DNA from: an uncultured bacterium
GTDB lineage: Bacteria > Hydrothermota > Hydrothermia > LBFQ01
DNA: 60,124 nucleotides
Direction of reading: 5' to 3'
Assembly (NCBI GenBank): GCA_964473735.1
Contig: CAYYQD010000003.1
Location: forward strand, 1 to 60,124
Position numbers and translations under genes: made by a program
Part shown: in pieces, positions 11,254-42,712 of the stretch
Layout: every line of letters starts with the position of its first letter
How positions within the stretch are numbered: position 1 is the first letter of the stretch
The notes under the pieces: model-generated
The model's database searches: none
Told to the model about the DNA's origin: nothing
The model's input: the letters and a program-made list of their open reading frames with translations, nothing else

Positions 11254-11327
11254 GGGCGCGTAGCTCAGCAGGTTAGAGCGCCGGTCTCACATACCGGAGG
11301 TCGGAGGTTCGAGTCCTCCCGCGCCCA
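11254..11327 (+). tRNA. tRNA-Val (anticodon CAC)
   Basis: Manual cloverleaf fold. The 7-bp acceptor stem (GGGCGCG/CGCGCCC), D stem (GCTC/GAGC), anticodon stem (CCGGT/ACCGG), loop CTCACAT and T arm (GGAGG-TTCGAGT-CCTCC) all pair. Discriminator is A; no CCA is encoded. Confidence 0.9.
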
Positions 11328-11328
11328 C

Positions 11329-27530: not shown

Positions 27531-27554
27531 CCCCTACGTGGTCGGGTACAGGCG

Positions 27555-27560
27555 TATAAT
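27555..27560 (+). promoter_or_regulatory. -10 box TATAAT, 9 nt before ATG 27570 (exbB; head of the 14.5-kb operon)
   Basis: gcgTATAATaccaacatcATG. Confidence 0.55.
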
Positions 27561-27569
27561 ACCAACATC

Positions 27570-28205
27570 ATGGTAGAGACCCTGAGAGACCTGTTCGTGC
27601 GTGGCGGCGTGATGATGTGGTTCATCCTCTTCGTCGCCATAATAGCTACGGCCATTTCCATAGAGAGGTTCTACTCCCTATTCTGGAAGATCCGCGTCAA
27701 CCCCATAAGGCTCGTGGAACACGTGATCAAGATAATAGAGGAGAAGGGCGTCAACGAGGCCATAGAGTTCCTCGCCAACCAGAAGAACCCCGTAGCCAAA
27801 GTCTTAGCCGCCGGCCTTGAGAAGGTGGGCAAGTCCAAGGTCGTCGTGGAGGAGGCCATGACCCGCAGGGCCATCCGCGAGCTGGCTTTCTTGGACAGGG
27901 GGATGATATACATAGCCGCGTCCGTTACCCTCGCCCCCATCTTAGGGTTCTTGGGAACCGTCTCCGGAATGATAAACGCCTTTGACGCTATAGCCAAGGC
28001 CGGGGAGGTTGAGCCTACCGTCGTGGCCGCGGGTATATCCGAGGCCCTGATAACCACCGCCTTCGGTCTGATCGTAGCCGCCCCATTCTCGCTCCTTTAC
28101 GCTATATTCATGGACAGGATAAACTCCTATCAGAGGCAGATAGAAGAGGCGGCCAACTTCCTCCTTGAGTACCTCGCCGAGGCGGGTATAGTCAGGGAGG
28201 CTTAG
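27570..28205 (+). CDS. exbB: MotA/TolQ/ExbB proton-channel protein
   Basis: 211 aa with three TM segments. 'LGFLGTVSGMINAF' and 'GISEALITTAFGLIVAAP' are signature blocks. Confidence 0.9.
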   Translation: MVETLRDLFVRGGVMMWFILFVAIIATAISIERFYSLFWKIRVNPIRLVEHVIKIIEEKGVNEAIEFLANQKNPVAKVLAAGLEKVGKSKVVVEEAMTRRAIRELAFLDRGMIYIAASVTLAPILGFLGTVSGMINAFDAIAKAGEVEPTVVAAGISEALITTAFGLIVAAPFSLLYAIFMDRINSYQRQIEEAANFLLEYLAEAGIVREA

Positions 28206-28206
28206 G

Positions 28207-28632
28207 ATGGCCATCGTACAGAGGAAGAAGATGGAGGAGGAGGCGGAGATCCCGACCGCCTCCATGGCCGACATAGCCTTCCTCCTCATCATATTCTTCA
28301 TGACCACGACCAACTTCGCCCGGGAGAAGGGGCTCAAGTTCTTACTTCCGGAGAAGAAGGATAAACCGCAGGAGCTGAAGATAGCGAGCAAGAACCTGCT
28401 GAAGATTTCCATAAACGACAGGGGGGAGGTCTTCCTTAACGACCAGCAGATAGATCCCAACCGCCTTGAAGAGGAAGTGAAACGACGGTTAGAGGAGAAC
28501 AAGAAGCTCATTATACTCATCCGTACGCACGAAAACGCCCCCTACGGTATGATGATAAAGGCCTTTGATGCCGTTAAGGCCGCCGGGGGTAAGAAGGTGG
28601 GCTTAGGCGTAATAAAGGAGGAGGGATCATGA
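28207..28632 (+). CDS. exbD: ExbD/TolR biopolymer transport protein
   Basis: 'EIPTASMADIAFLLIIFFM' N-terminal TM segment with the conserved Asp. 1-nt gap after exbB. Confidence 0.9.
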   Translation: MAIVQRKKMEEEAEIPTASMADIAFLLIIFFMTTTNFAREKGLKFLLPEKKDKPQELKIASKNLLKISINDRGEVFLNDQQIDPNRLEEEVKRRLEENKKLIILIRTHENAPYGMMIKAFDAVKAAGGKKVGLGVIKEEGS

Positions 28633-29036
28633 GGCTAAAGCGTAAAAAGGAGATGAAGGCCCAGATCCCCACGGCCTCCATGTCCGATATAGCTTTCCTC
28701 CTTATAATATTCTTCATGACCGTGACCGTGTTCCGTAAGGCTCAGGGTCTCCCCGTCCAGCTCCCCTTTGCCAAGACCACGGAGCGTATCCTCAAGCAGC
28801 GCGACTTAGCCTTCGTCTGGATAGGCCGGAACGGTAAGGTAAGCGTAGATGACAACATCGTCCCTCCGGAGAAGATCGCCGTTATCTTCCGGACCAAGAT
28901 GGCCGACAACCCCGCCCTGATAGTGGATATAAAGGCGGATCAGAACGTGCGCTACAGGTACGTGTATAAGGTTATGGAGGCTTTGAGGGAGGCCAACGCC
29001 CTCAGGGTCGTATTTGCCACGAGGAAAGGACAATGA
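28629..29036 (+). CDS. exbD: ExbD/TolR biopolymer transport protein (second paralogue)
   Basis: 'QIPTASMSDIAFLLIIFFM'. 4-nt ATGA-type overlap with the preceding gene. Confidence 0.9.
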   Translation: MRLKRKKEMKAQIPTASMSDIAFLLIIFFMTVTVFRKAQGLPVQLPFAKTTERILKQRDLAFVWIGRNGKVSVDDNIVPPEKIAVIFRTKMADNPALIVDIKADQNVRYRYVYKVMEALREANALRVVFATRKGQ

Positions 29037-29692
29037 GGGAGAAGGATAAGAAGAGCCTCGTAAAGAGGATCTTCCTTGAGAGCGAATTGGAAACGGAATA
29101 CACGAGGGACTTAAACCTCGCCTTTACTCTGTCCCTCATCGTCGTGATCGGCGCCTTTCTCTTCGGTAAAGGATGCAAGATTGAAAATTACAAGCCAAAG
29201 AAGGCGCAAGAGACGGCCCTTGAACAGATAGACATCCAGACGGAGTTTGAGGAGCCTCCTCCTCCACCCCCTAAACCCAAGGTGGCCTTACCGGAGGAGG
29301 TTGAGGAGGTTGAGAGCGAGGCCGAGCAGGACACCATAAACATAGCCGAGACGGTTGAATTCAACGAAGAGGACGTACCCCCTCCTCCCCCTCCATCTCA
29401 GGTCTTTCAGGTGTACGAGGTGGATGAACCTCCGGAGCCGGTCGTGAACGTACAGCCGGAGTACCCCGAGATAGCCCGTCAGGCCGGCCTTGAGGGTAAG
29501 GTGCTGGTTGAAGCCGTTATAGACGAGAACGGGAACGTCATAGACGCCCGTGTAAAGTACTCCGACAACGAGATCTTCAACCAGGCAGCCCTCGCAGCCA
29601 TGAGGAAGATGAAGTTCAAACCGGCCAAGCAGAAGGGTATCCCCGTGAAGGTTAAGATAATACAGCCCTTCATCTTCAAGCTGAGGAGGTGA
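29033..29692 (+). CDS. tonB: TonB energy transducer
   Basis: N-terminal TM segment, Pro/Glu-rich spacer (EEPPPPPPKPK ... PPPPPPS), and a C-terminal TonB domain 'PEYPEIARQAGLEGKVLVEAVIDENGNV...KFKPA'. Confidence 0.85.
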   Translation: MREKDKKSLVKRIFLESELETEYTRDLNLAFTLSLIVVIGAFLFGKGCKIENYKPKKAQETALEQIDIQTEFEEPPPPPPKPKVALPEEVEEVESEAEQDTINIAETVEFNEEDVPPPPPPSQVFQVYEVDEPPEPVVNVQPEYPEIARQAGLEGKVLVEAVIDENGNVIDARVKYSDNEIFNQAALAAMRKMKFKPAKQKGIPVKVKIIQPFIFKLRR

Positions 29693-29758
29693 GGTATGGG
29701 GTTCTTCAGGGTGAGGAAGGGGGAGAGTTATAACAGCACCTTTAAAAAGGAGGTGAAT

Positions 29759-32700
29759 ATGAAACGCTTCTTAGTGGGACTTTTCGCCCTTCTTGTAGCC
29801 CTCCCGCTCTTCGGACAGTACGGTAAGATAGCGGGTAGGGTCGTTAGCGCAGAAAACGGCGAGCCTATACCGGCCGCGATCGTCAAGATCGTGAGCGGTC
29901 CCGCCAAGGGTGGGACCTACGCCGACGAGAACGGGTACTACGTTCTCCTGAGGCTTCCTCCCGGGACCTACACCCTTGAGGCCCGGGCCATAGGATACAA
30001 GCCCCAGATAGTTAAAAACGTCGTGGTGGATGCCGACCACACTACGGAGATCAACTTCCATCTCCCCTCCAAGGCCATCAAAGTCAAGGCCGTGGTCGTA
30101 GAGGCCAAGGAGAAGGTTATAAAGAAGGACGAGACCGAGAGTAAGTCCGTGGTGAAGGGAGAGAACATACAGAACATACCCGTCGCATCGCTGGAGCAGG
30201 CCATATCGCTCTCCTCCGGTGTCAGGGTGAGTGGCGGTGTGATACAGGTGCGCGGTGGTCGTCCCGGTGAGGTATCTTACGTCGTAGACGGCGTAGAGGT
30301 GACGGATCCCTACACAGGGTATCAGAGCGTGGACCTGCCCCTGAACGCCATACAGGAGGCCTCCGTAAGTAAGGGTGGCTTCGGTGCGGAGTACGGCTCC
30401 GCCTCCTCCGGTGTGGTGCAGGTGGCCACCCGTGAAGGTACCGACAAGTACGAGTTCTCATTCCAGACCTTCTCCAGCATCGGTATGGGGGGATTCTTCA
30501 ACACCAACGTTGGGGACCCCTACATGAAGTACTTCCAGCCCCCCTACTTCTACGGTGGGGATAAGTACAGGCTGGGGAACGGTAAGAGCGGCTCGGAGTA
30601 CTGGAACGACCTCATGAGCTTTGATAGGGAGCGCGCTGACATCTACAGCAAAAACCTCGCGGAGTTCGGTAAGAAGGATCCGTACTTTACGGACTTCGCT
30701 ACCTACTTCATAGGCAAGGACTACTTTAAGTACCCGTGGAGAGAGAACTACTTCCGTCCGATAATCGGTATAGGTGGCCCGGTCCTTCCTTTCTACGATG
30801 CCCTCCGCTTTTACCTCTCTTACGACTACACCACCACTCAGGGTACCTACCAGAACGGCATGAGGAGGGAAGGCTCCTATCAGTTTAAGCTCTCGTGGTT
30901 CGTCACCCCCAAGGTCAAGCTGTTCTTCGGGAGCGTAGGAACGGACGGAGAGTACGCCTTCGGTTTCTACCCCAACTGGAGGCTACTTCTGGCCCGCATG
31001 CCCGTAATAGAGTCCAAGAACAGGCAGTTCGCCGCCGGAGTGAACTACGCTCCCTCCCCCAAGTCCTATCTGGAGTTCAGGGTAGGGTACTTCAACACCT
31101 ATCGCCTTTATCTACCCTTCATAGACATAGACAAGGACGGGGTAGCCGACTTTACGGATCGCGACGGCGACCTCTTGGTTGAGGTGGACCCCGACATGCT
31201 GAAGCTCATAGGTCGCGCCCTTGACCCCAACCTCGTCCACGAGGATAACGGGAACTGGGTGGAGCTCCGTACCTTCTGGTGGGAGACCCCTCCGCAGGGA
31301 TACTATCCCACCTTTGTAAAGAGTACCAAGCGCCAGAACTACTACTTAGGTGTGGTTAAGGGTACGAACGACACCGTCCTCATAGCCTACGGCGACACCC
31401 TCTACGACAGCAGTGGCAACCCCGTGGAGGTTGATACCGTCTATCGGATCAAGAACTGTTACGTTCCCGTAGACGGGAAGGTGGAGGCGTGCACCACCAA
31501 GATGGTGTTCTCAAACATCTACACGCCCGAGCCTTATACGTGGCCGAAGCGGGTTTTCTACACCCGTAATACGAAGACGTGGAGCACCCGTCTGGACTTC
31601 CTATCTCAGGACCCCTTCGGTCTTAAGGGGCACGAGTTTAAGACGGGCTTTGAGTTCTACAGGTACGACATAAAGCAGACGGACGTGTATTACGCCTCCG
31701 GTGGGAACATCTACATAGACTTAGTGGATGCCCAGCCGTACAAGGGGGCGTACTACATCCGCGATAAGATGGAGTTTGAGGGCTTCATAGCCAACGTCGG
31801 ATTCAGGTTTGACTACTACAACCCCAACGCGTGGGTACCGGGCGATCTCCTGAACCCTGTAAAAGATATAACGCTCGCCCAGATAGGACCCATATTCAAC
31901 AGGGATTCCTCCTGGTGGTACAACGACAGAACGACGAGGGACACCTTCTTCCTCCGGGACCCCAAGAGGGTCAGCCCCACGTTCTACGTAAGCCCCCGTA
32001 TAGGTATCTCTCACCCCATATCCGAGAACGACGTCCTCCACTTCACCTACGGCCACTACTTCCAGATACCGAGGTTGAGGTGGCTGTTCGCAAACCAGTA
32101 CTGGTTCTTCACGGGCGCCTTCAACATAATGGGTAACCCCTCCCTCAAGCCCGAAAAGACCATATCCTACGAGGTCGGTATAAAGCACGCCTTCACCCCC
32201 TACACGGTCATAGACATAACCGCCTTCTACAAGGACATAGCGGACCTGGTACAGAGCAAGTGGATATACATAGGGAACACCGGGTGGCAATACACCACCT
32301 TCGTGAACCAGGACTTCGGTTCCGTGAGAGGAGTTGAGATAGACTTCACGAAGACCCCCGGTGGAAGCAACCCCTACCTCCGCTTCCTCACCCTGAATCT
32401 GGCATATACCCTGCAGTTCGCCAAGGCGAGCTTCGCCAACCAGTACGCCCTATATGCCCTCACGTGGTCGGGTATAGCGCCGGAGTACGCCGAGGAGCAC
32501 TACGTAGACTGGGACCAGAGGCACGTTGTGAATGCCGTGGTCTCCTACGATATACCCCTGATCCGTAAGACCCTATCTCTCCAGTTCATGACGGGGTACG
32601 GTGTGTCTCTGATTTACACCTTCGGTACCGGTACCCCATGGTCTCCTCCTCTGCGTAGCCCCCGCGACGTCCTTGAGAGGATGAACAGCCTCCGTCTCCC

Positions 32701-32938
32701 CGCTACCCATAACGTAGATTTCCGTATCTACAAGAGCTTCGGCCTACCCTTCGGTGCTAACCTTCGTCTGTTCGCGGACATATACAACCTCCTGAACGAC
32801 CGTACCGTCGTCTCCTACGCCGACCAGAACTACTTCTACTACTTCGGAGACCCCGAGGGGCCGACCAAGGATCCGACGGTGTATAAGAGGGGCAGGCTTA
32901 CGAGGTACGGCCTGCAGATCACGTGGAAGCAGAGGTAA
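29759..32938 (+). CDS. TonB-dependent outer-membrane receptor with N-terminal carboxypeptidase-regulatory-like domain (Oar/SusC size class)
   Basis: AAGGAGGTGA SD 4 nt before ATG 29759. Signal peptide 'MKRFLVGLFALLVALPLFGQ'. CarboxypepD_reg block 'GRVVSAENGEPIPAAIVKIV...GTYTLEARAIGY'. Plug domain 'VVEAKEKV...IQVRGGRPGEVSYVVDGVEV', followed by a long beta-barrel. Confidence 0.9.
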   Translation: MKRFLVGLFALLVALPLFGQYGKIAGRVVSAENGEPIPAAIVKIVSGPAKGGTYADENGYYVLLRLPPGTYTLEARAIGYKPQIVKNVVVDADHTTEINFHLPSKAIKVKAVVVEAKEKVIKKDETESKSVVKGENIQNIPVASLEQAISLSSGVRVSGGVIQVRGGRPGEVSYVVDGVEVTDPYTGYQSVDLPLNAIQEASVSKGGFGAEYGSASSGVVQVATREGTDKYEFSFQTFSSIGMGGFFNTNVGDPYMKYFQPPYFYGGDKYRLGNGKSGSEYWNDLMSFDRERADIYSKNLAEFGKKDPYFTDFATYFIGKDYFKYPWRENYFRPIIGIGGPVLPFYDALRFYLSYDYTTTQGTYQNGMRREGSYQFKLSWFVTPKVKLFFGSVGTDGEYAFGFYPNWRLLLARMPVIESKNRQFAAGVNYAPSPKSYLEFRVGYFNTYRLYLPFIDIDKDGVADFTDRDGDLLVEVDPDMLKLIGRALDPNLVHEDNGNWVELRTFWWETPPQGYYPTFVKSTKRQNYYLGVVKGTNDTVLIAYGDTLYDSSGNPVEVDTVYRIKNCYVPVDGKVEACTTKMVFSNIYTPEPYTWPKRVFYTRNTKTWSTRLDFLSQDPFGLKGHEFKTGFEFYRYDIKQTDVYYASGGNIYIDLVDAQPYKGAYYIRDKMEFEGFIANVGFRFDYYNPNAWVPGDLLNPVKDITLAQIGPIFNRDSSWWYNDRTTRDTFFLRDPKRVSPTFYVSPRIGISHPISENDVLHFTYGHYFQIPRLRWLFANQYWFFTGAFNIMGNPSLKPEKTISYEVGIKHAFTPYTVIDITAFYKDIADLVQSKWIYIGNTGWQYTTFVNQDFGSVRGVEIDFTKTPGGSNPYLRFLTLNLAYTLQFAKASFANQYALYALTWSGIAPEYAEEHYVDWDQRHVVNAVVSYDIPLIRKTLSLQFMTGYGVSLIYTFGTGTPWSPPLRSPRDVLERMNSLRLPATHNVDFRIYKSFGLPFGANLRLFADIYNLLNDRTVVSYADQNYFYYFGDPEGPTKDPTVYKRGRLTRYGLQITWKQR

Positions 32939-32949
32939 GGAGGTAGGAA

Positions 32950-35283
32950 ATGAAGAGGTACGCATTACTCTTATCGTTGACGGCCTTAGCCCTTCCCCTA
33001 TGGGGTAGGGATAGGGTTCCCAAAGGCAACGCGGGAGACTTCCGTGTACTTGCCACTTCGGACAAACAGTACGTGCTCTCCGTGGGAGACGTATGGACCA
33101 CCTTTACCAACTTCGGGGAGCACGGGGACGCCAACCTCATCCTTCCGGGGTACAGCAGACCCGGAAACACCCCCGGGCAGAACGTGTATTACCTGTGGGA
33201 CGGAAGGGTCTGGATAGCGGCCTTCTTCCAGGGGAACAAGTACGTGACGACGTACGACTACGGACTCAGAGAATGGTCCCCCAGTCCCGATAACGGCCCT
33301 ACGGGTTTCGCCTTCATAGGTGCCGACAAATCCTTCCTTGACGTTGAGGCCCGCTATCAGGATTTCAAGAACGACACGAGGAACAGCGGGCGACACACCG
33401 GTCTTAAGGTCATAGAGAGGATACTCTCGTGGCCCCACGACCCCTACAACCAGTTCTTCGCGTACGAGATAGGTGTCACCTTCGTCAAGGACTCCTTTGA
33501 CATATCCGACAACAAGCCCGACTCCCTGCAGATATACGTCGCATGGAACTACGATGCCGACGTATGCGGTGCCGACGCTACGGAGCCGCACATAGACGAC
33601 CTGGTCTATTACGACGGCGCTCCCGAGGACTGTAATATCTCCCTCATGGCCCATCCGATGGGGTGGGAGGACAGCGTGTCCGTCCTTATAGACACGACCA
33701 TCCACACGCCCGACGATATACCCGACGGCTACACCATCTGGGGGGACGATCCCAAGGAGAAGGAGATAACCATCGCTTACTACGAGGCCCACTTCGGTGC
33801 CGGTGCTCGTCCCGACTCCTTCATGCTGGTGCGTCCCAGTAGGGACAACCCGGATCAACTGGACACGGTGTATTACTACTACCTGATACCTCGCAACACT
33901 TCTATGATCTACGACTGGGACAACCCCTCCGAGACCGGCGAGGACATCGGAGATAACGGGATGTGTAAGGGATACATCGGCATGAGGCTCGTATACGCCC
34001 CTCCGAGCGATAACGACCTAACCGCCACGAACGGACAGAGCGTCGGCTCTCTCTGCCGTCCTATAACGCTGGCCAAAAGCACGGGTTCCGGAGACAACGT
34101 GCGCATAATATACCCTCACGCCCACCAGTGGTGGAACTGGGAGAACGACCCCGGAGACGACAACGCCCGCTACGACTACATCGTGGGGGATCACCCGGCG
34201 ACCAGACCTTACAAGTTCGCCCCTCATCCCTTTGACTTCGGTGCCACGCAGTTTGACTACAGGTTCCTCCTATCCACCGGTCCTTACTGGATACACGATG
34301 GGGATACCCTATGGTTCGTGGTTGTCGGTGGTGTTGGTGAGGGGATGGACGGAGATACGGACAACTACTGGTACGGTGGGGCTTACAAGCTGGGCCTCCG
34401 TCAGCTGATGGATCAGGCCTTACTGGCCTACTACACCGGTTCCAACGGTCTATGCGATCCCGCCCACCCTTGCGGACCCAACGAGGCCCCTCACTGGAAG
34501 ATCCCCATACCGCCCATTACCCCTTCCTTGAGCTACGGTCCATCGGGAGATTCCGTGATCCTGATATGGGACAAGCGGGCCGAATACACCATAGACCCCA
34601 TAAAGAAAGAGATAGACTTCATGGGGTACGCCATATACCGTGCCAAGTTCGGGCCCAAGTTCAACAACCCTCCGGTTAAGATACTCATTGACGCCGATAA
34701 GGACCCGGCCCTTAAGGACTCCGTCAGACAGTACTGGATAAACTACTGGCAGACGGTTGCCGGCGTTGACGTGAGCGATAGGATAGAGGAGAAGTCCTTC
34801 AGAGGGCAGAATACGTACATAGACAGAGATCCTCCGAAGGGTTATCCTCTGTACTACGCCGTTACGGCCTTTGACTGGGAGCCGGCCATACGTGCCAGCC
34901 TTGAGTCCTCCGCCAACAACTATCTGAAGAGTGCGGACGGTTCCCCCAAGCCCATTTACGTCGGTGGCCCCTCCGGAGGGTCCGACTGGACCAAACGGGT
35001 CGTGATAGCACCCAACCCCGTCTACGGATCCTCCAAGTGGGCGGCGACGAGTATAACCCCCGAGATCAAGTTCTTCAACGTCCCAGCCTCCGCCCGTATA
35101 GACATATACTCCTTCACGGGAGACCACATCAAGACGCTGTATAACAACCTACCCACCACCGGTGCCGTCTCCTGGAACCTCCTAACCCCTCAGGGTCGTA
35201 TGGTCTCGCCCGGTATATACTTCGTGCGCATCGTGGATAAGGACGGGAAGACGTACTACGGTAAGTTCGTAGTACTTAGATAG
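32950..35283 (+). CDS. 777-aa secreted protein of unknown function with T9SS/FlgD-Ig-like CTD
   Basis: AAGGAGGTAG SD. Signal peptide 'MKRYALLLSLTALALPLWG'. Tail '...RIDIYSFTGDHIKTLYNN...PGIYFVRIVDKDGKTYYGKFVVLR'. No catalytic motif recognised. Confidence 0.7.
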   Translation: MKRYALLLSLTALALPLWGRDRVPKGNAGDFRVLATSDKQYVLSVGDVWTTFTNFGEHGDANLILPGYSRPGNTPGQNVYYLWDGRVWIAAFFQGNKYVTTYDYGLREWSPSPDNGPTGFAFIGADKSFLDVEARYQDFKNDTRNSGRHTGLKVIERILSWPHDPYNQFFAYEIGVTFVKDSFDISDNKPDSLQIYVAWNYDADVCGADATEPHIDDLVYYDGAPEDCNISLMAHPMGWEDSVSVLIDTTIHTPDDIPDGYTIWGDDPKEKEITIAYYEAHFGAGARPDSFMLVRPSRDNPDQLDTVYYYYLIPRNTSMIYDWDNPSETGEDIGDNGMCKGYIGMRLVYAPPSDNDLTATNGQSVGSLCRPITLAKSTGSGDNVRIIYPHAHQWWNWENDPGDDNARYDYIVGDHPATRPYKFAPHPFDFGATQFDYRFLLSTGPYWIHDGDTLWFVVVGGVGEGMDGDTDNYWYGGAYKLGLRQLMDQALLAYYTGSNGLCDPAHPCGPNEAPHWKIPIPPITPSLSYGPSGDSVILIWDKRAEYTIDPIKKEIDFMGYAIYRAKFGPKFNNPPVKILIDADKDPALKDSVRQYWINYWQTVAGVDVSDRIEEKSFRGQNTYIDRDPPKGYPLYYAVTAFDWEPAIRASLESSANNYLKSADGSPKPIYVGGPSGGSDWTKRVVIAPNPVYGSSKWAATSITPEIKFFNVPASARIDIYSFTGDHIKTLYNNLPTTGAVSWNLLTPQGRMVSPGIYFVRIVDKDGKTYYGKFVVLR

Positions 35284-35293
35284 GAGGTAGAAA

Positions 35294-36280
35294 ATGATCC
35301 TGTGGATGCTTGTCGTTCAGTACGGTGAAAGGGACTACAACCCTTTCGCCAAGGTCGGAGTTGCGGGGAGTAAGTTCCTCCAGCTCTATACCTCCCCCAA
35401 GGTGGGAGCCATGGGAGAGGCCTCGGTTAGCTACTTTACCGACGACCCCCTACTCATGGTTGATAACCCAGCGTCCGCCATGTTCATGAGCAGTAAGGCG
35501 GTGGGGGTGGGTTTCATGCCCTACTGGGTCCAGACCTACGTTACCGACGTCGCGTACATACACCCCTACGGTAGGTTCAAGTTCGGTGGGTACGTACACG
35601 CCGCCACATCCCTTAACTTCAAACACACAGTCGTTACGGATAACGGGTACGAGGAGAAAGGTACGTTCAACTACACCGGTATGGCCGTCGCCTTCGTTAT
35701 GGGGGCACGCCTCACGGACAAGTTCTCCGCCGCCCTTGCTCCCAAGCTCATATACGAAGGCTTTGGGTCCTTTACGAGCACCTACGCCTTCGCCGTTGAT
35801 GTCGGTACGGTGTTTGAGACCGGGTGGCACGGCGTGAATATCGGTATGACCGTACAGAACTTCGGTACGGATCCGAGGCTCTCCGGCAACTACGTGATAT
35901 ACAACTTCACCGGAAACGAGGTGGTTGAGGACACGCTGCCCTACAAGGCCTACAACCTTCCCCTTACCTTCCGTGCCGGTCTCTCCTTTGACGTATTCCG
36001 CAGGTCCTACCACGCCCTGATAGGGGTACTGGAGGTAAATCACCCCAACGATAACGCCGAGTCCTACAACTTGGGATTTCAGTACTCCTACGCCGACATG
36101 TTTTTCTTCCGCTTTGGCAAGAAGTTCCGCGGTGGGTTCCAGTGGACCTCCGACTCCCACGACGAGGTGTTGAACTTCGGCTTCGGTCTCAAGTTCGCCA
36201 GTATGTCCTTTGACTACGCCTATACCGTGAACTACCGCATGCCCGACATCAGCAGGTTTGGGCTGGTATATACCTTTTAA
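35294..36280 (+). CDS. PorV/PorQ-family (FadL-like) outer-membrane beta-barrel
   Basis: N-terminal block 'AGSKFLQLYTSPKVGAMGEASVSYFTDDPLLMVDNPASAMF' matches the PorV/PorQ consensus (FL.I...aRa.gMG.A.v......a...NPA). Alternating beta-strand pattern. Ends in an aromatic residue, '...FGLVYTF'. Confidence 0.65.
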   Translation: MILWMLVVQYGERDYNPFAKVGVAGSKFLQLYTSPKVGAMGEASVSYFTDDPLLMVDNPASAMFMSSKAVGVGFMPYWVQTYVTDVAYIHPYGRFKFGGYVHAATSLNFKHTVVTDNGYEEKGTFNYTGMAVAFVMGARLTDKFSAALAPKLIYEGFGSFTSTYAFAVDVGTVFETGWHGVNIGMTVQNFGTDPRLSGNYVIYNFTGNEVVEDTLPYKAYNLPLTFRAGLSFDVFRRSYHALIGVLEVNHPNDNAESYNLGFQYSYADMFFFRFGKKFRGGFQWTSDSHDEVLNFGFGLKFASMSFDYAYTVNYRMPDISRFGLVYTF

Positions 36281-36292
36281 GGAGGTTTTGAA

Positions 36293-39088
36293 ATGAAACG
36301 GTTTGCGATAGCGTTGAGCCTCTTAACGGCTGTTCCCCTTATGGGGGTGGACAGCGTTGAGGTCTATCTACCCACCCTCAAGCTCATATTCTCCGTGGAT
36401 GAAACGCCCACCAAGGTCCCCGTACTTGACTCAACGGAGTACGCGTACATCGCCCTTCTGAAGAAGAACATCTATCCGATGAACATCGTGGAGGTTGCCT
36501 CCTTCAGAGACTTCCCTCCCGTCGGGTGGTCCGCCGATCCCGAGTGGGGTATGACCTACGAGCTCGTGGGAAGTTCTTACTACTATCCCGCCGTGGTCTA
36601 TACGGCTACGCCTTCCACAGGATCCTACGCCTTAACTTCGGCCGTGCTTGACCTATCCGTTACGGACGTACCCGTTCCCGACACCCTGACCTTCACCTAC
36701 AAGCTAACCGGTATGGAGAACGGGGATACCCTGTACGTTGAGGTCATAGGGAACGGAGACGACACGACCACGTGCTGGACCCCTATAGGTACCATAACCG
36801 CCGCCGACGCAGTCCCGGACATGACGGTTAAACGGCTTCAGGTACTCCCTTCCTCCTACCCCTGCGGCACCTTGAACGACAACACGCCCGTGCAGATAAG
36901 GTTCCGCTTCAAGGACAACAGCAGTCCCACTATGGACAGCACCAGGTTCTTCGCCCTGTACAGCGTGTATATCGGTGGGTACTGGTACAGGCCCACGGCC
37001 GACGACACCATACCCGACTCTCTGGTGAATTACTACGTGGGTACGGTCAAAGCGGCCTTTGAAGGTGTTCCGAACGGGATACTGAATTTCCTCGGACTGA
37101 ACAAGGACGACCTCAAAACCAGAAGCCCCGACAAGAAGGTGGTTATCCTGATAGCCCCCTTCAACATGTCCGACGTAACCCAGGATCAGCGCTACTTGGG
37201 GTACTGGGACGTGTACGACACCCTGAACTCCTACGACCTCATCTACATAAACTACGCCAAGCAGACGGCACAGGGTACCTTCGGCGGTGTGTATTGGGAT
37301 ACCACCAAGGTGCGCAGGTACTTAGCCTTCCAGTACGCCCGCCTCGCTGCCTACTCCCTTGACACCACCGAAGCCTACAACTTCTACCCGGTGTGGTTCA
37401 ACCAGTTCCAGATAGCCGCCAAGGCCTCCTGGATAGCCCACAAGGTTCTCCGCAGGGACTTCGGCGATCCCTTGGGACTGGCCGGCGGTATAAAGGGTGG
37501 AACACCCGAAAAGAGCAGCGTGTCTCTCATAGTTCCGTCTTTCACCTACGACGGTAAGGTGTACGTGGATGCGCAGATAACGAAGGTCCTTCCGTGGATA
37601 GCCCACCTTGAGGACGTAGGGGGAGAGGGTGCCATTAAGGACGCCCTCACCGAGAACGACGTACCGTTCTTCTGGTACCCCTTCCTTCCCAACTCCCTGA
37701 ACAACGTGATACTTTCCTCCGGCTCCAACTTCTACAAGGAGGTGGAGACCTTCTACCTCAAAGAGCTGGGGGCCGCCCAGACGTGGGACGATGCCCTCTC
37801 AGACTACCCCCACTTTACCAGCGACGACGTCTTCAACACTCTGGACTACACCGCCACCAGTGCCGCCAACGTGGTGAATAAGGTGGCCTTCCCGCTGGTA
37901 GCCTACAGGTACAGCGTTAACCAGCCCGGTCGTAAGTACCTGAGGTTTGACGGAGCGGATTACAACTCCGTAGTCACGTACGTGGGTGGGAACCTTGATA
38001 CCTTACCGGGTTTCGTTCTGTACAAGGTGAATCTAAACGACAACACCTGGGAGAGGGTGAGCCTTGACGAGCGGTACAGGTGGTCCTTCAGGGACGACGC
38101 AGGGCTCCGGGGGAACTACTACTTCCTCTTCATAAACGTCGGTGCTACGGCCCTTTACTCCTTTAGCGCCGACTTCAGGGATACCCTTCCGCCCACGGTA
38201 GCGGACCTGGGTATCCTTCCGGATGCCGCAGCCCCGGAGTTCATAGACGTGTATCTCTACTCCGATAGCAGGATATACTTTGACGCCGGGCAGGAAGGGG
38301 CTCTCGTACAGTTCTGGCCCAAGAACGACTCGGCCAACTATCAGGTCTACAACCTGTACCTTGACTACGCCGGCATGTCCGATACGACCTACCTGGTCTA
38401 TACGAAACAGGTCAGGCTCTCCTTCACGGACATCTTCGGGAACGAGTACTTCGGTCCCATTAAGTACCGTCTCGCCCTGGCCCAGAACGCTGCCGGCGTG
38501 GATTACGTGACGACCATAAGCGACACCGCCGGTGAGTTCTATAAGGTGAAGCTGGATACCCGTATGGCTAACATCATACCCGGAGTGCTCTCTATGGCAT
38601 CCACGGCCGGTGAGCAGAGGTTCTACCTGTTCCCCAACGGTAAGGAGTACGTCTTCAGCGCGCCGATACACGCACAGGTCAAGGTGGCAGCGCAGGAGGG
38701 AGACAGGGTCTTCTACTTCAACGGCTACGAGTGGAGGGAGGCCCGCTCCTACTACTACCCTGAGGAGGGGAAGGTTGAAGCCTTCGTGAGCGGCGCCTAC
38801 CGTATATATGTCGGTAAGGACAAGCCCTCCACGGCACCCGTCACGGCCTTCAACCTCAGGAGCGAGGTCAATAAGGTCGTAGTCTCCGTCCCCGAGAAGG
38901 GACAGGTCACCCTTAAGATATACAATCCGATGGGCCGCCTCGTTCGCACTGTAATCCACGACGTAAAAGGTGCCGGGAACTACGCCTTCAGGATTGACGA
39001 CCTACCCCGCGGCGTGTATCTCGTACGTGTCAAAGCCGGTAAGTACTCCGGTACCGTTAAGGTCCTTGTACTCGGAGGTGTAAGATGA
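36293..39088 (+). CDS. 931-aa secreted protein of unknown function with T9SS-type CTD
   Basis: AAGGAGG SD. Signal peptide 'MKRFAIALSLLTAVPLMG'. 'FRDFPPVGWS' resembles the FPP.GW motif of choice-of-anchor-J / cleaved-adhesin-type domains (from memory). Tail '...GVYLVRVKAGKYSGTVKVLVLGGVR'. Confidence 0.7.
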   Translation: MKRFAIALSLLTAVPLMGVDSVEVYLPTLKLIFSVDETPTKVPVLDSTEYAYIALLKKNIYPMNIVEVASFRDFPPVGWSADPEWGMTYELVGSSYYYPAVVYTATPSTGSYALTSAVLDLSVTDVPVPDTLTFTYKLTGMENGDTLYVEVIGNGDDTTTCWTPIGTITAADAVPDMTVKRLQVLPSSYPCGTLNDNTPVQIRFRFKDNSSPTMDSTRFFALYSVYIGGYWYRPTADDTIPDSLVNYYVGTVKAAFEGVPNGILNFLGLNKDDLKTRSPDKKVVILIAPFNMSDVTQDQRYLGYWDVYDTLNSYDLIYINYAKQTAQGTFGGVYWDTTKVRRYLAFQYARLAAYSLDTTEAYNFYPVWFNQFQIAAKASWIAHKVLRRDFGDPLGLAGGIKGGTPEKSSVSLIVPSFTYDGKVYVDAQITKVLPWIAHLEDVGGEGAIKDALTENDVPFFWYPFLPNSLNNVILSSGSNFYKEVETFYLKELGAAQTWDDALSDYPHFTSDDVFNTLDYTATSAANVVNKVAFPLVAYRYSVNQPGRKYLRFDGADYNSVVTYVGGNLDTLPGFVLYKVNLNDNTWERVSLDERYRWSFRDDAGLRGNYYFLFINVGATALYSFSADFRDTLPPTVADLGILPDAAAPEFIDVYLYSDSRIYFDAGQEGALVQFWPKNDSANYQVYNLYLDYAGMSDTTYLVYTKQVRLSFTDIFGNEYFGPIKYRLALAQNAAGVDYVTTISDTAGEFYKVKLDTRMANIIPGVLSMASTAGEQRFYLFPNGKEYVFSAPIHAQVKVAAQEGDRVFYFNGYEWREARSYYYPEEGKVEAFVSGAYRIYVGKDKPSTAPVTAFNLRSEVNKVVVSVPEKGQVTLKIYNPMGRLVRTVIHDVKGAGNYAFRIDDLPRGVYLVRVKAGKYSGTVKVLVLGGVR

Positions 39089-40368
39089 AAAGGTTTATAG
39101 CTGTCCTGCTGCTGTCCGGTGCGATGGTCTGGGGGGTCGGTGGGTGTAAGCTGTTCCACGCGCAGGACACCACCCCGGAGGCCGCCGAGATGGGTAAGCT
39201 TCTGAAGGAGGGGTGGCAGTACTACAAGGAGGGGAAGTTTGACTCGGCCTTAGCCAAGTTTGATACGGCGGCCATCATAGTGGACCCCTCTAACATGGAG
39301 GCCCACTTGGGTAGGGGGCTGACCCTCATGAGGAAGGGTCTGTACCCCGATGCCCATCAGGAGTTCGCCCTTATATACACCCCTTACATACAGGAGAACG
39401 TGTGGATTCTGGACCTATACGTTCCGGGGAACAGGGAGGGGGTGTTTGATACCATCGTGATAGACACGGTGACCCCGCCAGATACGGTAGCCTTCGGTAT
39501 AGACAGCAACGACCTCCTCCGGGCGGATGGGAACGGCAGGCTCATCAGCTCCCCCAACTACATGATTCTGGCTTCGTGGAAGTTAGGACCTCTGTTCGCC
39601 TCCAACGGTATCTCCTTTGAGGACGCGGACTACGTCTATCTACCCGTGGACCTCAAGAAGATAGTGGTAAAGCCCGATACGGCCGTGGCGCCAAAGGATA
39701 TTGACCCCGTCGCTTTCACGACCGCCTTCACCCCCACCACGGCTCCCCTCAACGTCACCTCCTCCTCCATCTCCTACGTTGATGCGGACGGTCCCGTGGT
39801 CTTCCTGACCAGTACCAAGAGCGGTACGGACAGGGAGCCGGAGCTACCCCTGCTGTTTGACTGGCTGTACGATTCTACCTCATCCGGTCCCGTGGGAGAT
39901 ACCCTTAAGCTAACCATGGTGGTCCTGAAGATAGCCAAGAGCGGGTTGGGAGACAGGCCGGATATAGTCTGGATGGCTCTGGCGGCCGACGCCCACACCT
40001 ACTATATGGAGGCCATAGACAACAAGAAGGCCGCCTACCTCGCCTTCGCCGCCTATCTCCTATTCCCCATGAGGGGGAGCATCCCGGACGGAGCGAACTA
40101 CTCCGGAATCCCCGGCCTGACCACCGACGACGCGTCCGTCCTGAAGGGCCTCGCCGGAGTCGCCGCCTTAGGCTACCACAAGGCCGGCTGGGTGGGGAAC
40201 TCCGTATCCGTCATCCGTTTCTTCGGTGATAACACCTACCCCAACTCCCTGTGGAACTACCTACCCGACACCTACGAGGAGATGGTGAATACGGTGGGCT
40301 TCACCAAGGACCCGAGCATCAACTACTCGGTGTATAAGAAGGCGAACGAGCTTTTCTTCGGTATGTAA
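39085..40368 (+). CDS. TPR-containing lipoprotein of unknown function
   Basis: Lipobox 'VGGC'. N-terminal TPR-like helices ('EGWQYYKEGKFDSALAKFDTAAIIVDPSNMEAHLGRGLTLMRKGLYPDAHQEF'). 4-nt overlap with the preceding gene. Confidence 0.65.
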   Translation: MKRFIAVLLLSGAMVWGVGGCKLFHAQDTTPEAAEMGKLLKEGWQYYKEGKFDSALAKFDTAAIIVDPSNMEAHLGRGLTLMRKGLYPDAHQEFALIYTPYIQENVWILDLYVPGNREGVFDTIVIDTVTPPDTVAFGIDSNDLLRADGNGRLISSPNYMILASWKLGPLFASNGISFEDADYVYLPVDLKKIVVKPDTAVAPKDIDPVAFTTAFTPTTAPLNVTSSSISYVDADGPVVFLTSTKSGTDREPELPLLFDWLYDSTSSGPVGDTLKLTMVVLKIAKSGLGDRPDIVWMALAADAHTYYMEAIDNKKAAYLAFAAYLLFPMRGSIPDGANYSGIPGLTTDDASVLKGLAGVAALGYHKAGWVGNSVSVIRFFGDNTYPNSLWNYLPDTYEEMVNTVGFTKDPSINYSVYKKANELFFGM

Positions 40369-40378
40369 AAAAGGAGGT

Positions 40379-42031
40379 ATGAGTATGATTTGGGTAATTG
40401 CAGCTTTACCTAACCTTAAGGCGGAGCATCTTTACAACGCTCCCCGTATGAGGGTGGCGGAGGGCCTCATGGAGCAGGTAGAGGCCCGTAAGAGGATAGA
40501 CACGAGGGTGCCCAAGACCGTGGGCTCCTCGTCCTTCTCCCCCTTCGCCCTGAGCGAAGTCTTCAGCGATACCGCCCCCAACCAGTACACTCTGGTGGGC
40601 CAAGGCCACCGCTCTCTCTACAGGAACGGCGACTCAATATGCGTGATCTACAGGCGCATAGACAGCCGCGGGAGCGGCTACCTCTCGGTGGCCTTCTCCT
40701 TTGACGGTGGTGCCACCTGGACGGTCCGTGAGGACGTAAACGAGGCGGCCGGTCTTCTGGACGCCGGTGGCCGCTATCCCAACTGCGTGGGCTTCTACAA
40801 CGGGGACCCCGTAATAAGCTGGCCGGAGCTCACGACCGGTCCGGCCTGGGGTGCCGCCTGTATAGCCGTCGCCTCCACCTCCCCGTACGGCTTCTGCACG
40901 GATCCCTCCTACGCCGTCTATCACACCTTCGCCTGGCCCATAGACGCCAACACTTACGCCGTCATTGGCTTTACGACCAACGACGACATAATCTACTACA
41001 CCTACGACCTCTCCACCGCCACGGCCAGCCCCGTTCAGGTGATCCGCAACTCCGGTACCGGTCAGGCGTTCAGACTCTACGACGTAGGTAGGTACAACGA
41101 CAGGGCTCTCGTGTACGGCTACGATTACGAAACGGCTCAGGACGCCTACATCTTCGTGAACGCCGACGGTACCGTATCCACCTCCATGCCCGTAACCTAC
41201 TTCGGCTTCGCCACGAGCGTGGATACCATAATGAGCATCGTGGACGCAGGTGTAGACGTAGACCCCAGCGGGAACGTGTGGGTCGCGTATATCCTCAAGG
41301 ACACCCTCAGCAACCCCGGAGCCGGTATAGGGCACGTTCTGGCCCTGAACCGCGCCGACGACACCACGGGCGCCACGGCCATGATGTTCTACACCCCCAG
41401 CCCCTCCAACCCCGACAGCGCCTTCCGTAAGAACCCGGTATACAGGCCCACTCTTGCCTTCGGTCCCGACGGCAACAACATGCTGGCCACTACCCTGATG
41501 TTCTCTGACTCCGCCAACTACGGATGCCCGACCGTCACGGGTAGCACCTCTCCCCCCACGGAGCTCGTGGCCTTCGCCTCCACGGACGGCGGTGCCAACT
41601 GGTTCCTGGCCGACGGTGACCTCATAGGGGACGGCACCCCCGACATGATGGAGGACTTGTACCTCCTGAACTTCTACCCCACCAACGGGTACCTCCTCTT
41701 CCCCGGCGGGGATATATGCGTCGTCTACCTGACCCCCCTTGACGGCTCCACCCAGCTCTACTGTAACTATCGGGAGGAGAACGATGCAACCCAGGCCCTC
41801 GTGCACGTCTCGTGCGGTCAGGCCGTCGGCGTGGCCGAGAAGCCCGCTAAGAAGGGCGCCGTTGCCACCGTCAACGTCCTCAAGGGTGGCGTTGAGGTCA
41901 GCGGTCCCGCCTCCATATACGACGCCAGGGGATCTCTGGTCACCACGACCGAGGGTGGCTTCGTCTCCCTTGACAGGGGCATCTACTTCGTCAAGACCGG
42001 AAACCGCGTGAGCAAGGTGGTGGTCAGGTAA
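40379..42031 (+). CDS. Asp-box-containing secreted protein with T9SS-type CTD
   Basis: Asp-boxes SFDGGATW and STDGGANW. Tail '...RGIYFVKTGNRVSKVVVR'. The GGAGG SD fits the second ATG (40385) better than 40379. Confidence 0.75.
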   Translation: MSMIWVIAALPNLKAEHLYNAPRMRVAEGLMEQVEARKRIDTRVPKTVGSSSFSPFALSEVFSDTAPNQYTLVGQGHRSLYRNGDSICVIYRRIDSRGSGYLSVAFSFDGGATWTVREDVNEAAGLLDAGGRYPNCVGFYNGDPVISWPELTTGPAWGAACIAVASTSPYGFCTDPSYAVYHTFAWPIDANTYAVIGFTTNDDIIYYTYDLSTATASPVQVIRNSGTGQAFRLYDVGRYNDRALVYGYDYETAQDAYIFVNADGTVSTSMPVTYFGFATSVDTIMSIVDAGVDVDPSGNVWVAYILKDTLSNPGAGIGHVLALNRADDTTGATAMMFYTPSPSNPDSAFRKNPVYRPTLAFGPDGNNMLATTLMFSDSANYGCPTVTGSTSPPTELVAFASTDGGANWFLADGDLIGDGTPDMMEDLYLLNFYPTNGYLLFPGGDICVVYLTPLDGSTQLYCNYREENDATQALVHVSCGQAVGVAEKPAKKGAVATVNVLKGGVEVSGPASIYDARGSLVTTTEGGFVSLDRGIYFVKTGNRVSKVVVR

Positions 42032-42043
42032 GGACCTGACCCC

Positions 42044-42712
42044 TCATTTGCGCCCCGCCGTACGGCGGGGCGTTTTTTCGTATACGGCCATCACGTTGCC
42101 GAAGGCCGTGGTGCTGAGATAGACCTTCCGCATACCGCCCACTTCCTCCATGAGTCTGGCGACGTCCTCCTCCGTATACAGGCACACCTCACCGCTTATA
42201 TCGTACCTGCGACCCACATCGGGGGGCAGGGGGGACCACCGCTCCTCAACGGGCAGATCCCTGTCCGGGTACCCCTCACCTATTGGGGAGTTCAGACCGG
42301 AGAAGGAGAGGAAGAACCTCCCTCCGGGGAGGGTGCGGTTCCGAAGGACCTTAAGGATCCTCACGGCCTCTCTGAACCTGACGTGGTGGAGTACCCTCTC
42401 GGCCACGACCAACCCCACACCCTCGGGCAGGTCCCCGTACCCCATATCCCGGACGTCCATGAGGTGGAACTTTATATCCCCGTACTCCCCCAGACAGGCG
42501 TTTATGCGGGCGTAGTGGGGAGCCAGAGAGGGGTCGGAGTCGTAAAGATAACACCGGAAACCCAGTAGGGCGAGTACGATAGCCAGCCGCCCCCTCCCCG
42601 GTCCCAGCTCAACGCACACCTTAGAAGGGGCTTCCCCCGAGAGGGCGAACCTTATGACCCTCTTTCCTAAGGAGCTGACCCTCCGCTGCCCTACGTCTAT
42701 ACCCTTTCCCAT
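42044..42712 (-). CDS. class I SAM-dependent methyltransferase
   Basis: Motif I-like 'VELGPGRGRLAIVLALLG' followed by an acidic 'LYDSD'. ATG 42712 is the second codon of the ORF-track TTG 42715. Confidence 0.7.
   Translation of the reverse strand: MGKGIDVGQRRVSSLGKRVIRFALSGEAPSKVCVELGPGRGRLAIVLALLGFRCYLYDSDPSLAPHYARINACLGEYGDIKFHLMDVRDMGYGDLPEGVGLVVAERVLHHVRFREAVRILKVLRNRTLPGGRFFLSFSGLNSPIGEGYPDRDLPVEERWSPLPPDVGRRYDISGEVCLYTEEDVARLMEEVGGMRKVYLSTTAFGNVMAVYEKTPRRTAGRK
42051..42078 (+). terminator. rho-independent terminator closing the exbB...40379 operon
   Basis: cgccccgccg-ta-cggcggggcg stem (9-10 bp) followed by T6. It lies inside the 3' end of the convergent methyltransferase ORF. Confidence 0.8.

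Follow-up and report, generated by a model that had tools for sequence, protein, structure and literature searches.

TonB-dependent barrels that carry a plug domain and a TonB box are gated importers energized by ExbB, ExbD and TonB. Barrels of another family, that of PorV, bind the C-terminal domains (CTDs) of type IX secretion system (T9SS) proteins. PorU and PorZ keep their CTDs, which are not cleaved off and remain attached to PorV and PorQ, respectively, thus tethering these proteins (PMC10202324), and the genes of type B CTD cargo adjoin those of the cognate PorP/SprF barrels (PMC12618676). Here we describe a locus in which genes of both kinds stand side by side. It is located in a stretch of 60,124 nucleotides (nt) from an uncultured bacterium of the Hydrothermota (positions 1 to 60,124 of contig CAYYQD010000003.1, GenBank assembly GCA_964473735.1), hereafter the window, where the map of open reading frames (ORFs) contains ten consecutive, tightly packed genes on the + strand between positions 27570 and 42031. 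These genes encode ExbB, two ExbD proteins, TonB, a TonB-dependent barrel, a CTD protein of 777 amino acids (aa) named X, a PorV/PorQ-like barrel, a 931-aa CTD protein named Y, a TPR lipoprotein and a 550-aa Asp-box CTD protein named Z. A preliminary description of the window had arrived at the same gene products, and Pfam and NCBIfam models agree with it. We propose that the last six genes may specify a TonB-dependent capture/import machine that is similar to a utilisome in function, is built from different parts and uses a peptide or protein as its ligand, a reading to which we give about an even chance.

Conservation of the Six-Gene Cassette

The conserved unit of this locus is formed by its last six genes, those of the TonB-dependent barrel, X, the PorV-like barrel, Y, the TPR lipoprotein and Z. 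Scanning one genome per species (GTDB) with an alignment of X located 294 places that encode an X relative. The best 80 of these 294 were fetched, their ORFs were labeled by phmmer, and the loci were counted where their flanks allow. The barrel gene immediately precedes X in 56 of 60 testable loci, the PorV-like gene immediately follows it in 70 of 73, and a protein with an M30-like domain comes next after the PorV-like gene in 49 of 57. These best 80 belong to WOR-3 (including Caldipriscus, Hydrothermia and Stahlbacteria), TA06, LCP-89, Calditrichota, KSB1, Neomarinimicrobiota (Marinimicrobia), Zixibacteria and Cloacimonadota. The gene order persists from 93% to about 27% identity of X: the closest relative is a WOR-3 genome bin (93%); contigs with 47%, 38% and 31% identity have the same order, the last one, from Tara Oceans assemblies, without exbBD-tonB; and a 27%-identity relative retains the barrel, X and the FadL/PorV-like barrel. 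A word-index search gave 47 homologs of X, the named ones being from candidate division WOR-3 and Fidelibacterota. The idea of a single conserved functional unit, already present in the preliminary description, is thus borne out by a gene order that is kept across dozens of genomes and several phyla, and the objection that it might not be conserved in relatives clearly fails. Searches of the literature found no paper on the cassette, in agreement with the earlier statement that no system with this gene set has been described, and none that combines WOR-3 with the T9SS; two recent WOR-3 genome papers (one of them PMC12285271) mention neither TonB nor secretion systems.

Some genomes contain two cassettes (L010 and L054 in one case, L011 and L012 in another), and three loci (L034, L035 and L074) hold full or partial cassettes in tandem, with the barrel, X and PorV-like genes repeated. 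Between cassettes, Y, the TPR lipoprotein and Z diverge fast, whereas the barrel, X and the PorV-like protein stay recognizable. The genome bins of L010-L012, L054, L066, L069, L076 and L083 are labeled Thermotogota, Lentisphaeria, Actinomycetota, Woesearchaeota archaeon or Cytophagia, which looks like misclassification or bin contamination given the closeness of these cassettes to WOR-3 and FCB-group loci. A solitary X-like gene (L006, 5479-11657) is found amid genes for an M28/M20 peptidase, an M19 dipeptidase and an MFS transporter, a neighborhood that gives a weak hint of peptide metabolism.

The TonB-Dependent Barrel and Protein X

The first gene of the cassette (29759-32938, + strand) encodes a protein of 1059 aa with matches to PF13620, PF13715, PF07715 and PF00593. 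Its signal peptide is followed by a CarboxypepD_reg N-terminal extension (aa 24-102; PF13620, 68.8 bits), a TonB-box-like motif (aa 110-118), a plug (aa 122-219; PF07715, 45.3 bits, cut-off 23.9) and the barrel proper (PF00593, 81.8 bits, cut-off 27). The TonB-box-like sequence KAVVVEAKE (nt 30086-30112), located between the extension and the plug, corresponds to the consensus VVVxAKRP of the orthologs, a match at motif level only, and the plug residues are conserved among orthologs as well. A profile of 29 barrel orthologs matches the plug of CirA, the SusC homolog 8aa4 (N-terminal part) and 9gbc. On the SusC/RagA model TIGR04056 the barrel obtains 70.3 bits versus a cut-off of 368.25 (E=1e-19), and this match is limited to the N-terminal 343 model positions. 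Having a PF13620 extension before the plug and linked Ton genes, it falls within the Oar subclass as defined in PMC6434023. The plug, its conserved residues, the TonB-box-like motif and the SusC-like N-terminal part would support a function of this barrel in import.

X (32950-35283, + strand; 777 aa) is composed of a signal peptide, an all-β N-domain of ~460 aa (aa 40-500), an FN3-like domain (aa 527-660) and a T9SS-type CTD (aa 705-777). Its AlphaFold2 model is confident (pLDDT 84.5, pTM 0.80), also in the C-terminal β-sandwich, and a Foldseek search with this model against the PDB returns FN3 and Ig matches plus PorZ and PorU. At the profile level, the X family matches the CTDs of PorZ (E=1e-4) and PorU (E=9e-4). 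Apart from the CTD models, no Pfam family is found in any of 39 members of the family, even at E=0.1. The β-sandwich family of GH94 and dextran dextrinase was considered for the N-domain; the similarity is weak (query TM-score 0.20-0.26) and no family was assigned. Most Foldseek matches obtained with whole models concern FN3, Ig and CTD domains.

A Predicted Pseudoprotease in the Fourth Position

Y (36293-39088, + strand; 931 aa) starts with a signal peptide and a jelly-roll domain (aa 41-230) that resembles MAM, ephrin-receptor ligand-binding and CBM11 domains in Foldseek (target TM-score ~0.6), continues with an M30/lugdulysin-like domain (aa 241-505) and Ig-like domains, and ends in a CTD (aa 850-928). 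The middle domain is helical in the model, and an alignment of 36 Y proteins displays a pattern reminiscent of HExxH...WxxEG in which key residues are altered. Lugdulysin is the M30 neutral metalloprotease of Staphylococcus lugdunensis, and its structures 7bb8 and 7bb9 are matched by the profile of the Y middle domain at E=6e-31 over positions 3-247 of 260, i.e., about 245 residues. When aligned with hmmalign, the HEYQH zinc motif (HExxH) of lugdulysin is replaced in Y by the degenerate FQYAR (37328-37342, + strand), and WFNQFQ (37394-37411, + strand) aligns with the downstream WLNE-type third ligand. None of 58 M30-like domains aligned in this way has an intact HExxH: the first His is present in nine and the Glu in four, and in place of the second His, 27 domains have Arg and 12 have Lys. 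The position corresponding to Tyr315, which is mutated (Y315F) in 7bb9, is conserved in 0 of 58, and an HExxH motif is found nowhere in any Y protein. On the basis of these alignments, Y is predicted to be an ancient, uniformly inactivated M30 protease, i.e., a pseudoprotease. Among the cassette proteins, the M30-like domain is confined to the fourth position. NCBIfam models also match Y-position proteins as PorU, T9SS-dependent M36 or inactivated M6-like proteases; these identities were rejected because the matches fall on the CTD only.

Pfam and NCBIfam detect no active enzyme family in 36 Y, 37 Z and 39 X proteins, and scans of the Y and Z positions yield CTD, FlgD-Ig and BNR/Sortilin-type repeats only. 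The folds recognized among the surface proteins of the cassette are all of the binding type, namely FN3, MAM/CBM-like jelly-roll, BNR and Ig. The earlier claim that the locus has no peptidase catalytic motif is thus right in that X, Y and Z contain no active enzyme, but it overlooked the peptidase-derived domain of the 931-aa protein. X and Y would act together, since natural fusions of both exist (Rosetta-stone evidence): a HMMER search with the X profile retrieved 1334 representative proteins at E≤1e-30, and at least 21 single chains among the matches listed unite the N-domain of X with the dead M30 domain and a CTD. Such fusion proteins, of 1000-1700 aa, are encoded by L085 (4705-9024) and found among the representative proteins P0073-P0191. 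The L085 fusion gene stands alone, without a barrel gene or a PorV-like gene in its vicinity, in a genome where a full cassette (L036) is also present.

The PorV-Like Barrel and the C-Terminal Domains

Encoded between X and Y (35294-36280, + strand) is an outer membrane barrel of 328 aa that belongs to the PorV/PorQ family (NF033709, 128.2 bits, cut-off 90). A profile of 36 cassette barrels of this type matches Flavobacterium johnsoniae PorV (6h3i_F) at E=1.5e-31, and FadL/TodX at ~2e-3. It stays below the cut-offs of the equivalog models (NF033710, NF033711), with 44 bits versus 250 for PorV and 74 bits versus 220 for PorQ, the PorQ model giving the better E value (1e-20, against 1.6e-11 for PorV). 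By these scores, the cassette barrel is a true PorV homolog, yet an ortholog of neither PorV nor PorQ.

CTDs are present in 88 of 90 X, 62 of 72 Y and 28 of 37 sixth-position proteins, the last 28 carrying PF18962, a family that is also matched by 13 of 39 members of the X family. TIGR04183, the model of T9SS type A CTDs, is matched by 33 of 36 Y-position proteins. The preliminary description had counted three CTD proteins in the window, which holds without reservation for Y (TIGR04183, 32.4 bits, cut-off 23), whereas X (21.1 bits) and Z (17.2 bits) remain just below the cut-off. A hidden Markov model (HMM) built from the CTDs of X, Y and Z finds no further CTD protein in the window. Far from the cassette, a 490-aa BNR/Asp-box protein (2631-4103, + strand) has a sub-threshold CTD (TIGR04183, 17.7 bits), which hints that CTD proteins are not confined to the cassette in this genome. 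Another protein of the window, a 506-aa FG-GAP/PQQ-like β-propeller (15657-17177, - strand), is weakly similar to the NCBIfam family "T9SS-dependent M6-like inactivated metalloprotease" and has no CTD by HMM.

Both the PorV-like barrel and Z begin with very short, uncharged hydrophobic N-termini (MILWMLVVQYG... and MSMIWVIAAL..., encoded at 35294-35340 and 40379-40425, respectively) that are not classical signal peptides. There is no room for an upstream start. N-termini of this kind recur at the same positions in L008, L009, L013, L014 and L018 of this thermophilic clade, and distant orthologs have normal ones.

The TPR Lipoprotein and Protein Z

The fifth cassette gene (39085-40368, + strand) encodes a 427-aa lipoprotein with a lipobox cysteine at position 21 (nt 39145-39147), TPR repeats at aa 40-99 (TPR_16, TPR_11, TPR_2) and a variable C-terminal part. 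The cysteine is invariant in 45 of 45 orthologs. All matches of the protein are to canonical TPR families and to designed TPR proteins; SusD Pfam families match 0 of 45 orthologs, and the 60 profile matches listed for PDB sequences include no SusD. The gene that adjoins the barrel gene is X, so the absence of a SusD/RagB gene from that position, pointed out before, is upheld.

Z (40379-42031, + strand; 550 aa) contains Asp-boxes at aa 107 and 401 (BNR, E=2e-4) and a weak CTD at aa 500-549, and is probably a BNR β-propeller as far as its repeats tell. With regard to a possible place among the sialidases or BNR glycosidases, its PDB matches span one 23-residue Asp-box only, and its BNR_2 matches are sub-threshold or weak. 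Single-sequence queries of the PDB with Y, Z, the TPR lipoprotein, the PorV-like barrel and the TonB-dependent barrel were uninformative, and only family profiles worked.

Ton Genes and Operon Layout

Upstream of the cassette lie exbB (27570-28205; 211 aa; PF01618 MotA_ExbB, E=8e-29), which encodes the proton-channel subunit of the Ton motor, two copies of exbD (28207-28632, 141 aa, PF02472, E=2e-29; and 28629-29036, 135 aa, PF02472, E=3e-25) that overlap by 4 nt, and tonB (29033-29692; 219 aa; PF03544 TonB_C, E=4e-22; TIGR01352, 68 bits, cut-off 27), all on the + strand. The MotA_ExbB, ExbD and TonB_C domains of these adjacent genes all exceed the Pfam cut-offs. A Ton cluster beside a barrel with such an N-terminal extension is already known from ton(oar)-oar. 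An exbB-exbD-exbD-tonB cluster is present upstream of the cassette in 29 of 54 testable loci (exbB 4-7 kb 5'), nearly all of them labeled WOR-3 or one of its sublineages (Hydrothermia, Caldipriscus), and most cassettes outside these lineages lack Ton genes. The Ton motor is thus a lineage-specific addition and not part of the cassette core. Because Ton genes are found in just these 29 loci, the cassette presumably draws on Ton proteins whose genes lie elsewhere in the genome, in the way of ordinary TonB-dependent importers. The original view, in which the motor belongs inseparably to a self-contained machine for export, is not supported, the core being the six genes.

The ten genes are separated by +1, -4, -4, +66, +11, +10, +12, -4 and +10 nt in gene order. 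This layout, with gaps from -4 to +12 nt and a single one of 66 nt, is as previously reported, and every ORF was found at the coordinates given for it. An alternative in-frame ATG of the barrel gene at 29696 would remove the 66-nt gap. However, position 29759 is the better start because an AAGGAGG Shine-Dalgarno (SD) sequence lies just upstream of it and a normal signal peptide (MKRFLVGLFALLVA) begins there. SD sequences of the GGAGG type precede the genes at 29759, 32950, 35294, 36293, 39085 and 40379, as had been noted, and also both exbD genes, which had instead been described as abutting or overlapping the preceding gene; exbB and tonB are the only two of the ten genes without.

A TATAAT box (27555-27560, + strand) 9 nt 5' of the exbB ATG is the likely promoter element of a leaderless or nearly leaderless transcript. 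The comparison of the window (27546-27572) with the regions upstream of exbB in L008, L009, L010, L013, L014, L018 and L019 shows that TATAAT and the next three bases are invariant in these eight related WOR-3 loci, 9-10 nt before the exbB ATG, whereas the DNA further 5' cannot be aligned. This contrast supports a real, conserved -10 element, so that the single leaderless-type -10 box of the preliminary description now has a far stronger basis than a match in one sequence. Together with the missing SD sequence, the invariant box suggests leaderless translation of exbB, the first gene of the operon, and the comparison also shows that the unit begins there. At the other end, an intrinsic terminator (42050-42079, + strand) is formed by a hairpin (42050-42073) with a 10-bp stem (nine GC pairs) and a 4-nt loop that is followed by TTTTTT. 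It is the sole strong terminator of the locus, confirming that the first strong hairpin with a T6 tract comes only after the last gene. Internal promoter-like and terminator-like matches are at chance level (nine versus 7.1 and 17 versus 12.1 expected in shuffled sequence). Rfam and ARAGORN scans detected no riboswitch, leader RNA or RNA gene in the locus, so the reported lack of a riboswitch also stands.

The flanking genes of the window are unrelated housekeeping genes, namely those of an F420-ligase-like protein, glycine cleavage P protein, a methyltransferase and nuoC. A tRNA-Val gene is located at 11254-11328. The window has ~57% GC and a heavy use of AGG and ATA codons, and its closest relatives are genome bins from hot springs and hydrothermal sites, consistent with a thermophilic member of WOR-3.

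Proposed Function and Alternative Explanations

Overall, the evidence favors what the preliminary description had put forward as its alternative, a capture/import machine whose binding proteins are anchored by CTDs. In the model that we infer, the two barrels and the surface proteins would form a physical complex. The TonB-dependent barrel, with its N-terminal extension, TonB box, plug and large barrel, would serve as the gated import channel. The three Sec-exported CTD proteins X, Y and Z would take the place of SusD and the other surface lipoproteins, X, which is encoded in the SusD position, being the constant partner of the barrel, and Y and Z being variable binding proteins. The dedicated PorV/PorQ-family barrel would hold the uncleaved CTDs of X, Y and Z and thus tether these proteins to the surface beside the transporter, in the same manner as PorZ is kept by PorQ and PorU by PorV. 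It is to the CTDs of PorZ and PorU, the two known ones that escape cleavage, that the CTD of X is closest. The TPR lipoprotein could be a scaffold or an assembly factor. Since the dead protease of Y would act as a binding module, the ligand is most likely a peptide or protein, possibly a glycoprotein; the BNR repeats make a glycoprotein or glycan conceivable. In the WOR-3 lineage, the cassette would be transcribed from the conserved -10 box as a leaderless message, in one operon with exbB-exbD-exbD-tonB, the products of which would energize plug removal.

The proposed import function is supported by a multiplicity like that of polysaccharide utilization loci (PULs), with cassettes in tandem or twice per genome and fast-evolving Y, TPR and Z proteins next to a conserved barrel, X and PorV-like protein. 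The sole cultured WOR-3 strain grows on yeast extract only and has few ABC transporters (PMC12285271). Several points weigh on the other side. CTD proteins require a route across the outer membrane, and no SprA/Sov, PorKLMN or PorU is encoded in the ~68 kb of this 81-kb contig that were examined. T9SS core genes were found neither in the window, nor in ~7.4 kb beyond its start, nor among the large unlabeled ORFs of 87 loci, which is too little sequence to establish their absence. The CTDs of X and Z in this genome do not quite reach the curated TIGR04183 threshold, and the AlphaFold2 model of Y is of only medium quality (pLDDT 72.5). The TPR lipoprotein, compared by sequence alone, may have a very remote SusD-like fold. 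The probable nature of the ligand is deduced only from the dead protease domain and the BNR repeats. Finally, the cassette differs from classical PULs in having no consistent association with an inner membrane transporter, a regulator or an active hydrolase.

Among the other explanations, the one that survives best, which we nevertheless consider unlikely, is that of a surface coat or adhesion system in which X, Y and Z are adhesins or coat proteins seated on the PorV-like barrel and the TonB-dependent barrel is mainly an anchor or sensor. The exclusive presence of binding-type folds, without any enzyme, and the fast evolution of Y and Z would suit this function, and there are precedents in the type B CTD adhesins, which have PorP/SprF barrels as cognate partners (PMC12618676), and in the FadL-like BamG, which is a scaffold for a surface protein (PMC12578637). 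However, an anchor or sensor does not account for the conserved plug and TonB box of the barrel, for an operon shared with the Ton motor in WOR-3 lineages, which makes sense for gated transport, or for the fact that X, encoded right behind the barrel, takes the place of SusD (56 of 60 loci).

Export rather than import is an improbable function in our estimation. The locus would then be a self-contained, Ton-energized and T9SS-independent export and display module in which the Oar-like barrel moves X, Y and Z outward and the PorV-like barrel receives their CTDs. Such a route could represent CTD-dependent secretion and display in a minimal and possibly ancestral state in small-genome thermophiles such as WOR-3, which we judge to be just as improbable. 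Oar shares the barrel architecture and the linkage to a Ton cluster and is required for secretion of PopC (PMC6434023), three CTD proteins are co-encoded with a PorV-like and a TonB-dependent barrel at the cassette loci, the ~68 kb mentioned above contain no T9SS core gene, and a small size, 1.5 Mb with completeness estimated at 78.9%, is reported for the Caldipriscus genome bin from Conch Spring. This has to be set against the 25 of 54 testable loci that have no Ton genes, and against the CTD proteins encoded outside cassettes in the same loci, to which the weak-CTD BNR protein of the window can be added; because of these proteins, a general CTD route probably exists. One cassette-bearing genome (L088, 291-2960, - strand) has, on the strand opposite to the cassette and 4-9 kb upstream of it, genes for a 559-aa PorP/SprF-family and a 302-aa MotA/ExbB-family protein, which may be a T9SS- or gliding-related pair, and reviews place the T9SS across the FCB superphylum (PMC11205867). 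Moreover, Oar is the single precedent for the idea that a 22-strand barrel could let folded proteins of 550-1700 aa pass.

It is very doubtful that the cassette is a paralog of the T9SS attachment complex (PorU-PorV-PorQ-PorZ type) that processes or anchors other T9SS cargo, with Y in the role of PorU. PorU is the top Foldseek match of Y (E=2.7e-8), the CTD of X is most similar to those of PorZ and PorU, and the PorV-like barrel is closer to the PorQ than to the PorV model. However, the similarity of Y to PorU (TM-score 0.09) is confined to its Ig-like and CTD regions, the matches of Y-position proteins to the NCBIfam models of PorU, M36 and M6i do not extend beyond the CTD, and the protease domain of Y is M30-like and dead instead of a C25 sortase; the invariant linkage to a TonB-dependent barrel would also be left unexplained. 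Least credible of all is an ordinary SusC/SusD PUL of the Bacteroidota type in which the TPR lipoprotein is a diverged SusD, an explanation that appeals to the SusC-like extension and plug of the barrel (TIGR04056, 8aa4) and to SusD being a TPR-rich lipoprotein, as the cassette lipoprotein with its invariant lipobox cysteine is, and that is largely refuted at the sequence level by a TIGR04056 score of 70 bits versus 368, by the lack of SusD matches in all 45 lipoproteins and in the 60 PDB matches listed, by a lipoprotein gene three genes away from the barrel instead of adjoining it, by a protein of mostly ~310-430 aa in which only the N-terminal canonical TPR repeats are conserved, and by the fact that no carbohydrate-active enzyme and no hybrid two-component or extracytoplasmic function (ECF) regulator was seen.

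Significance and Comparison With Known Systems

If the capture/import machine proves true, the utilisome idea would reach beyond the Bacteroidota, with capture proteins tethered through CTDs that sit in a PorV-like barrel of their own, in place of lipid anchors and SusD. Genes so far called "hypothetical", which are conserved as a block at 294 places in the representative genomes of species from largely uncultured phyla, would acquire a function, and the uptake of complex nutrients by these organisms could thereby be explained. With its M30 protease inactivated in every copy, the cassette would clearly exemplify how a dead enzyme can take on a new role as a receptor. Moreover, the cassette provides a simple synteny signature for the annotation of metagenomes.

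Several described systems share parts with the cassette. Oar, encoded next to ton(oar) in Myxococcus xanthus, has the same succession of CarboxypepD_reg extension, plug and barrel and adjoining exbB, exbD and tonB genes (PMC6434023). However, PopC, the protein that Oar exports, lacks a CTD, neither a PorV-like barrel nor CTD proteins are mentioned where the Oar locus is described (PMC6434023), and the linkage of the cassette to Ton genes is restricted to some lineages. The M30 proteases lugdulysin and hyicolysin align with ~245 residues of the central domain of Y, including the helix that bears HExxH and the WLNE region, but the Y domain lacks an intact zinc and catalytic site and is embedded in a multidomain CTD protein. 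In the β-barrel assembly machinery (BAM) of Bacteroidota, the BamG-BamH pair offers another instance of a 14-strand FadL/PorV-like barrel that acts as a fixed scaffold binding a surface protein (PMC12578637). Nonetheless, no sequence relationship was detected, BamG is absent from the PDB matches, and its partner is BamA instead of a TonB-dependent transporter. The T9SS barrel-CTD pairs have in common with the cassette a PorV-family barrel gene beside genes of CTD proteins, and the CTD is retained in the known pairs (PMC10202324, PMC12618676). They differ in that the cassette barrel is co-operonic with a TonB-dependent transporter and three type-A-like CTD proteins, and that a sortase is missing.

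The resemblance to SusCD/RagAB concerns both the parts and their arrangement: a large TonB-dependent barrel with a carboxypeptidase-regulatory N-terminal extension, several cassettes per genome, and a conserved surface-partner gene directly after the barrel gene that is followed by fast-evolving surface binding proteins. RagAB imports peptides, a parallel to the ligand proposed for the cassette. In contrast to SusCD/RagAB, which occur in Bacteroidota, the cassette is found in WOR-3, Calditrichota, Marinimicrobia and related phyla. It has no SusD/RagB, its partners being Sec-exported CTD proteins and a PorV-family barrel instead of lipoproteins, its barrel does not reach the SusC/RagA cut-off, and it has no linked carbohydrate-active enzymes or regulators. 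In all, the cassette would combine a TonB-dependent nutrient-capture locus with the known principle of tethering CTDs to a barrel in a form that is widespread and has so far been wholly unannotated. In its proposed function it is closest to the SusCD/RagAB utilisomes, and in its tethering logic to the PorQ-PorZ, PorV-PorU and type B CTD-PorP pairs.

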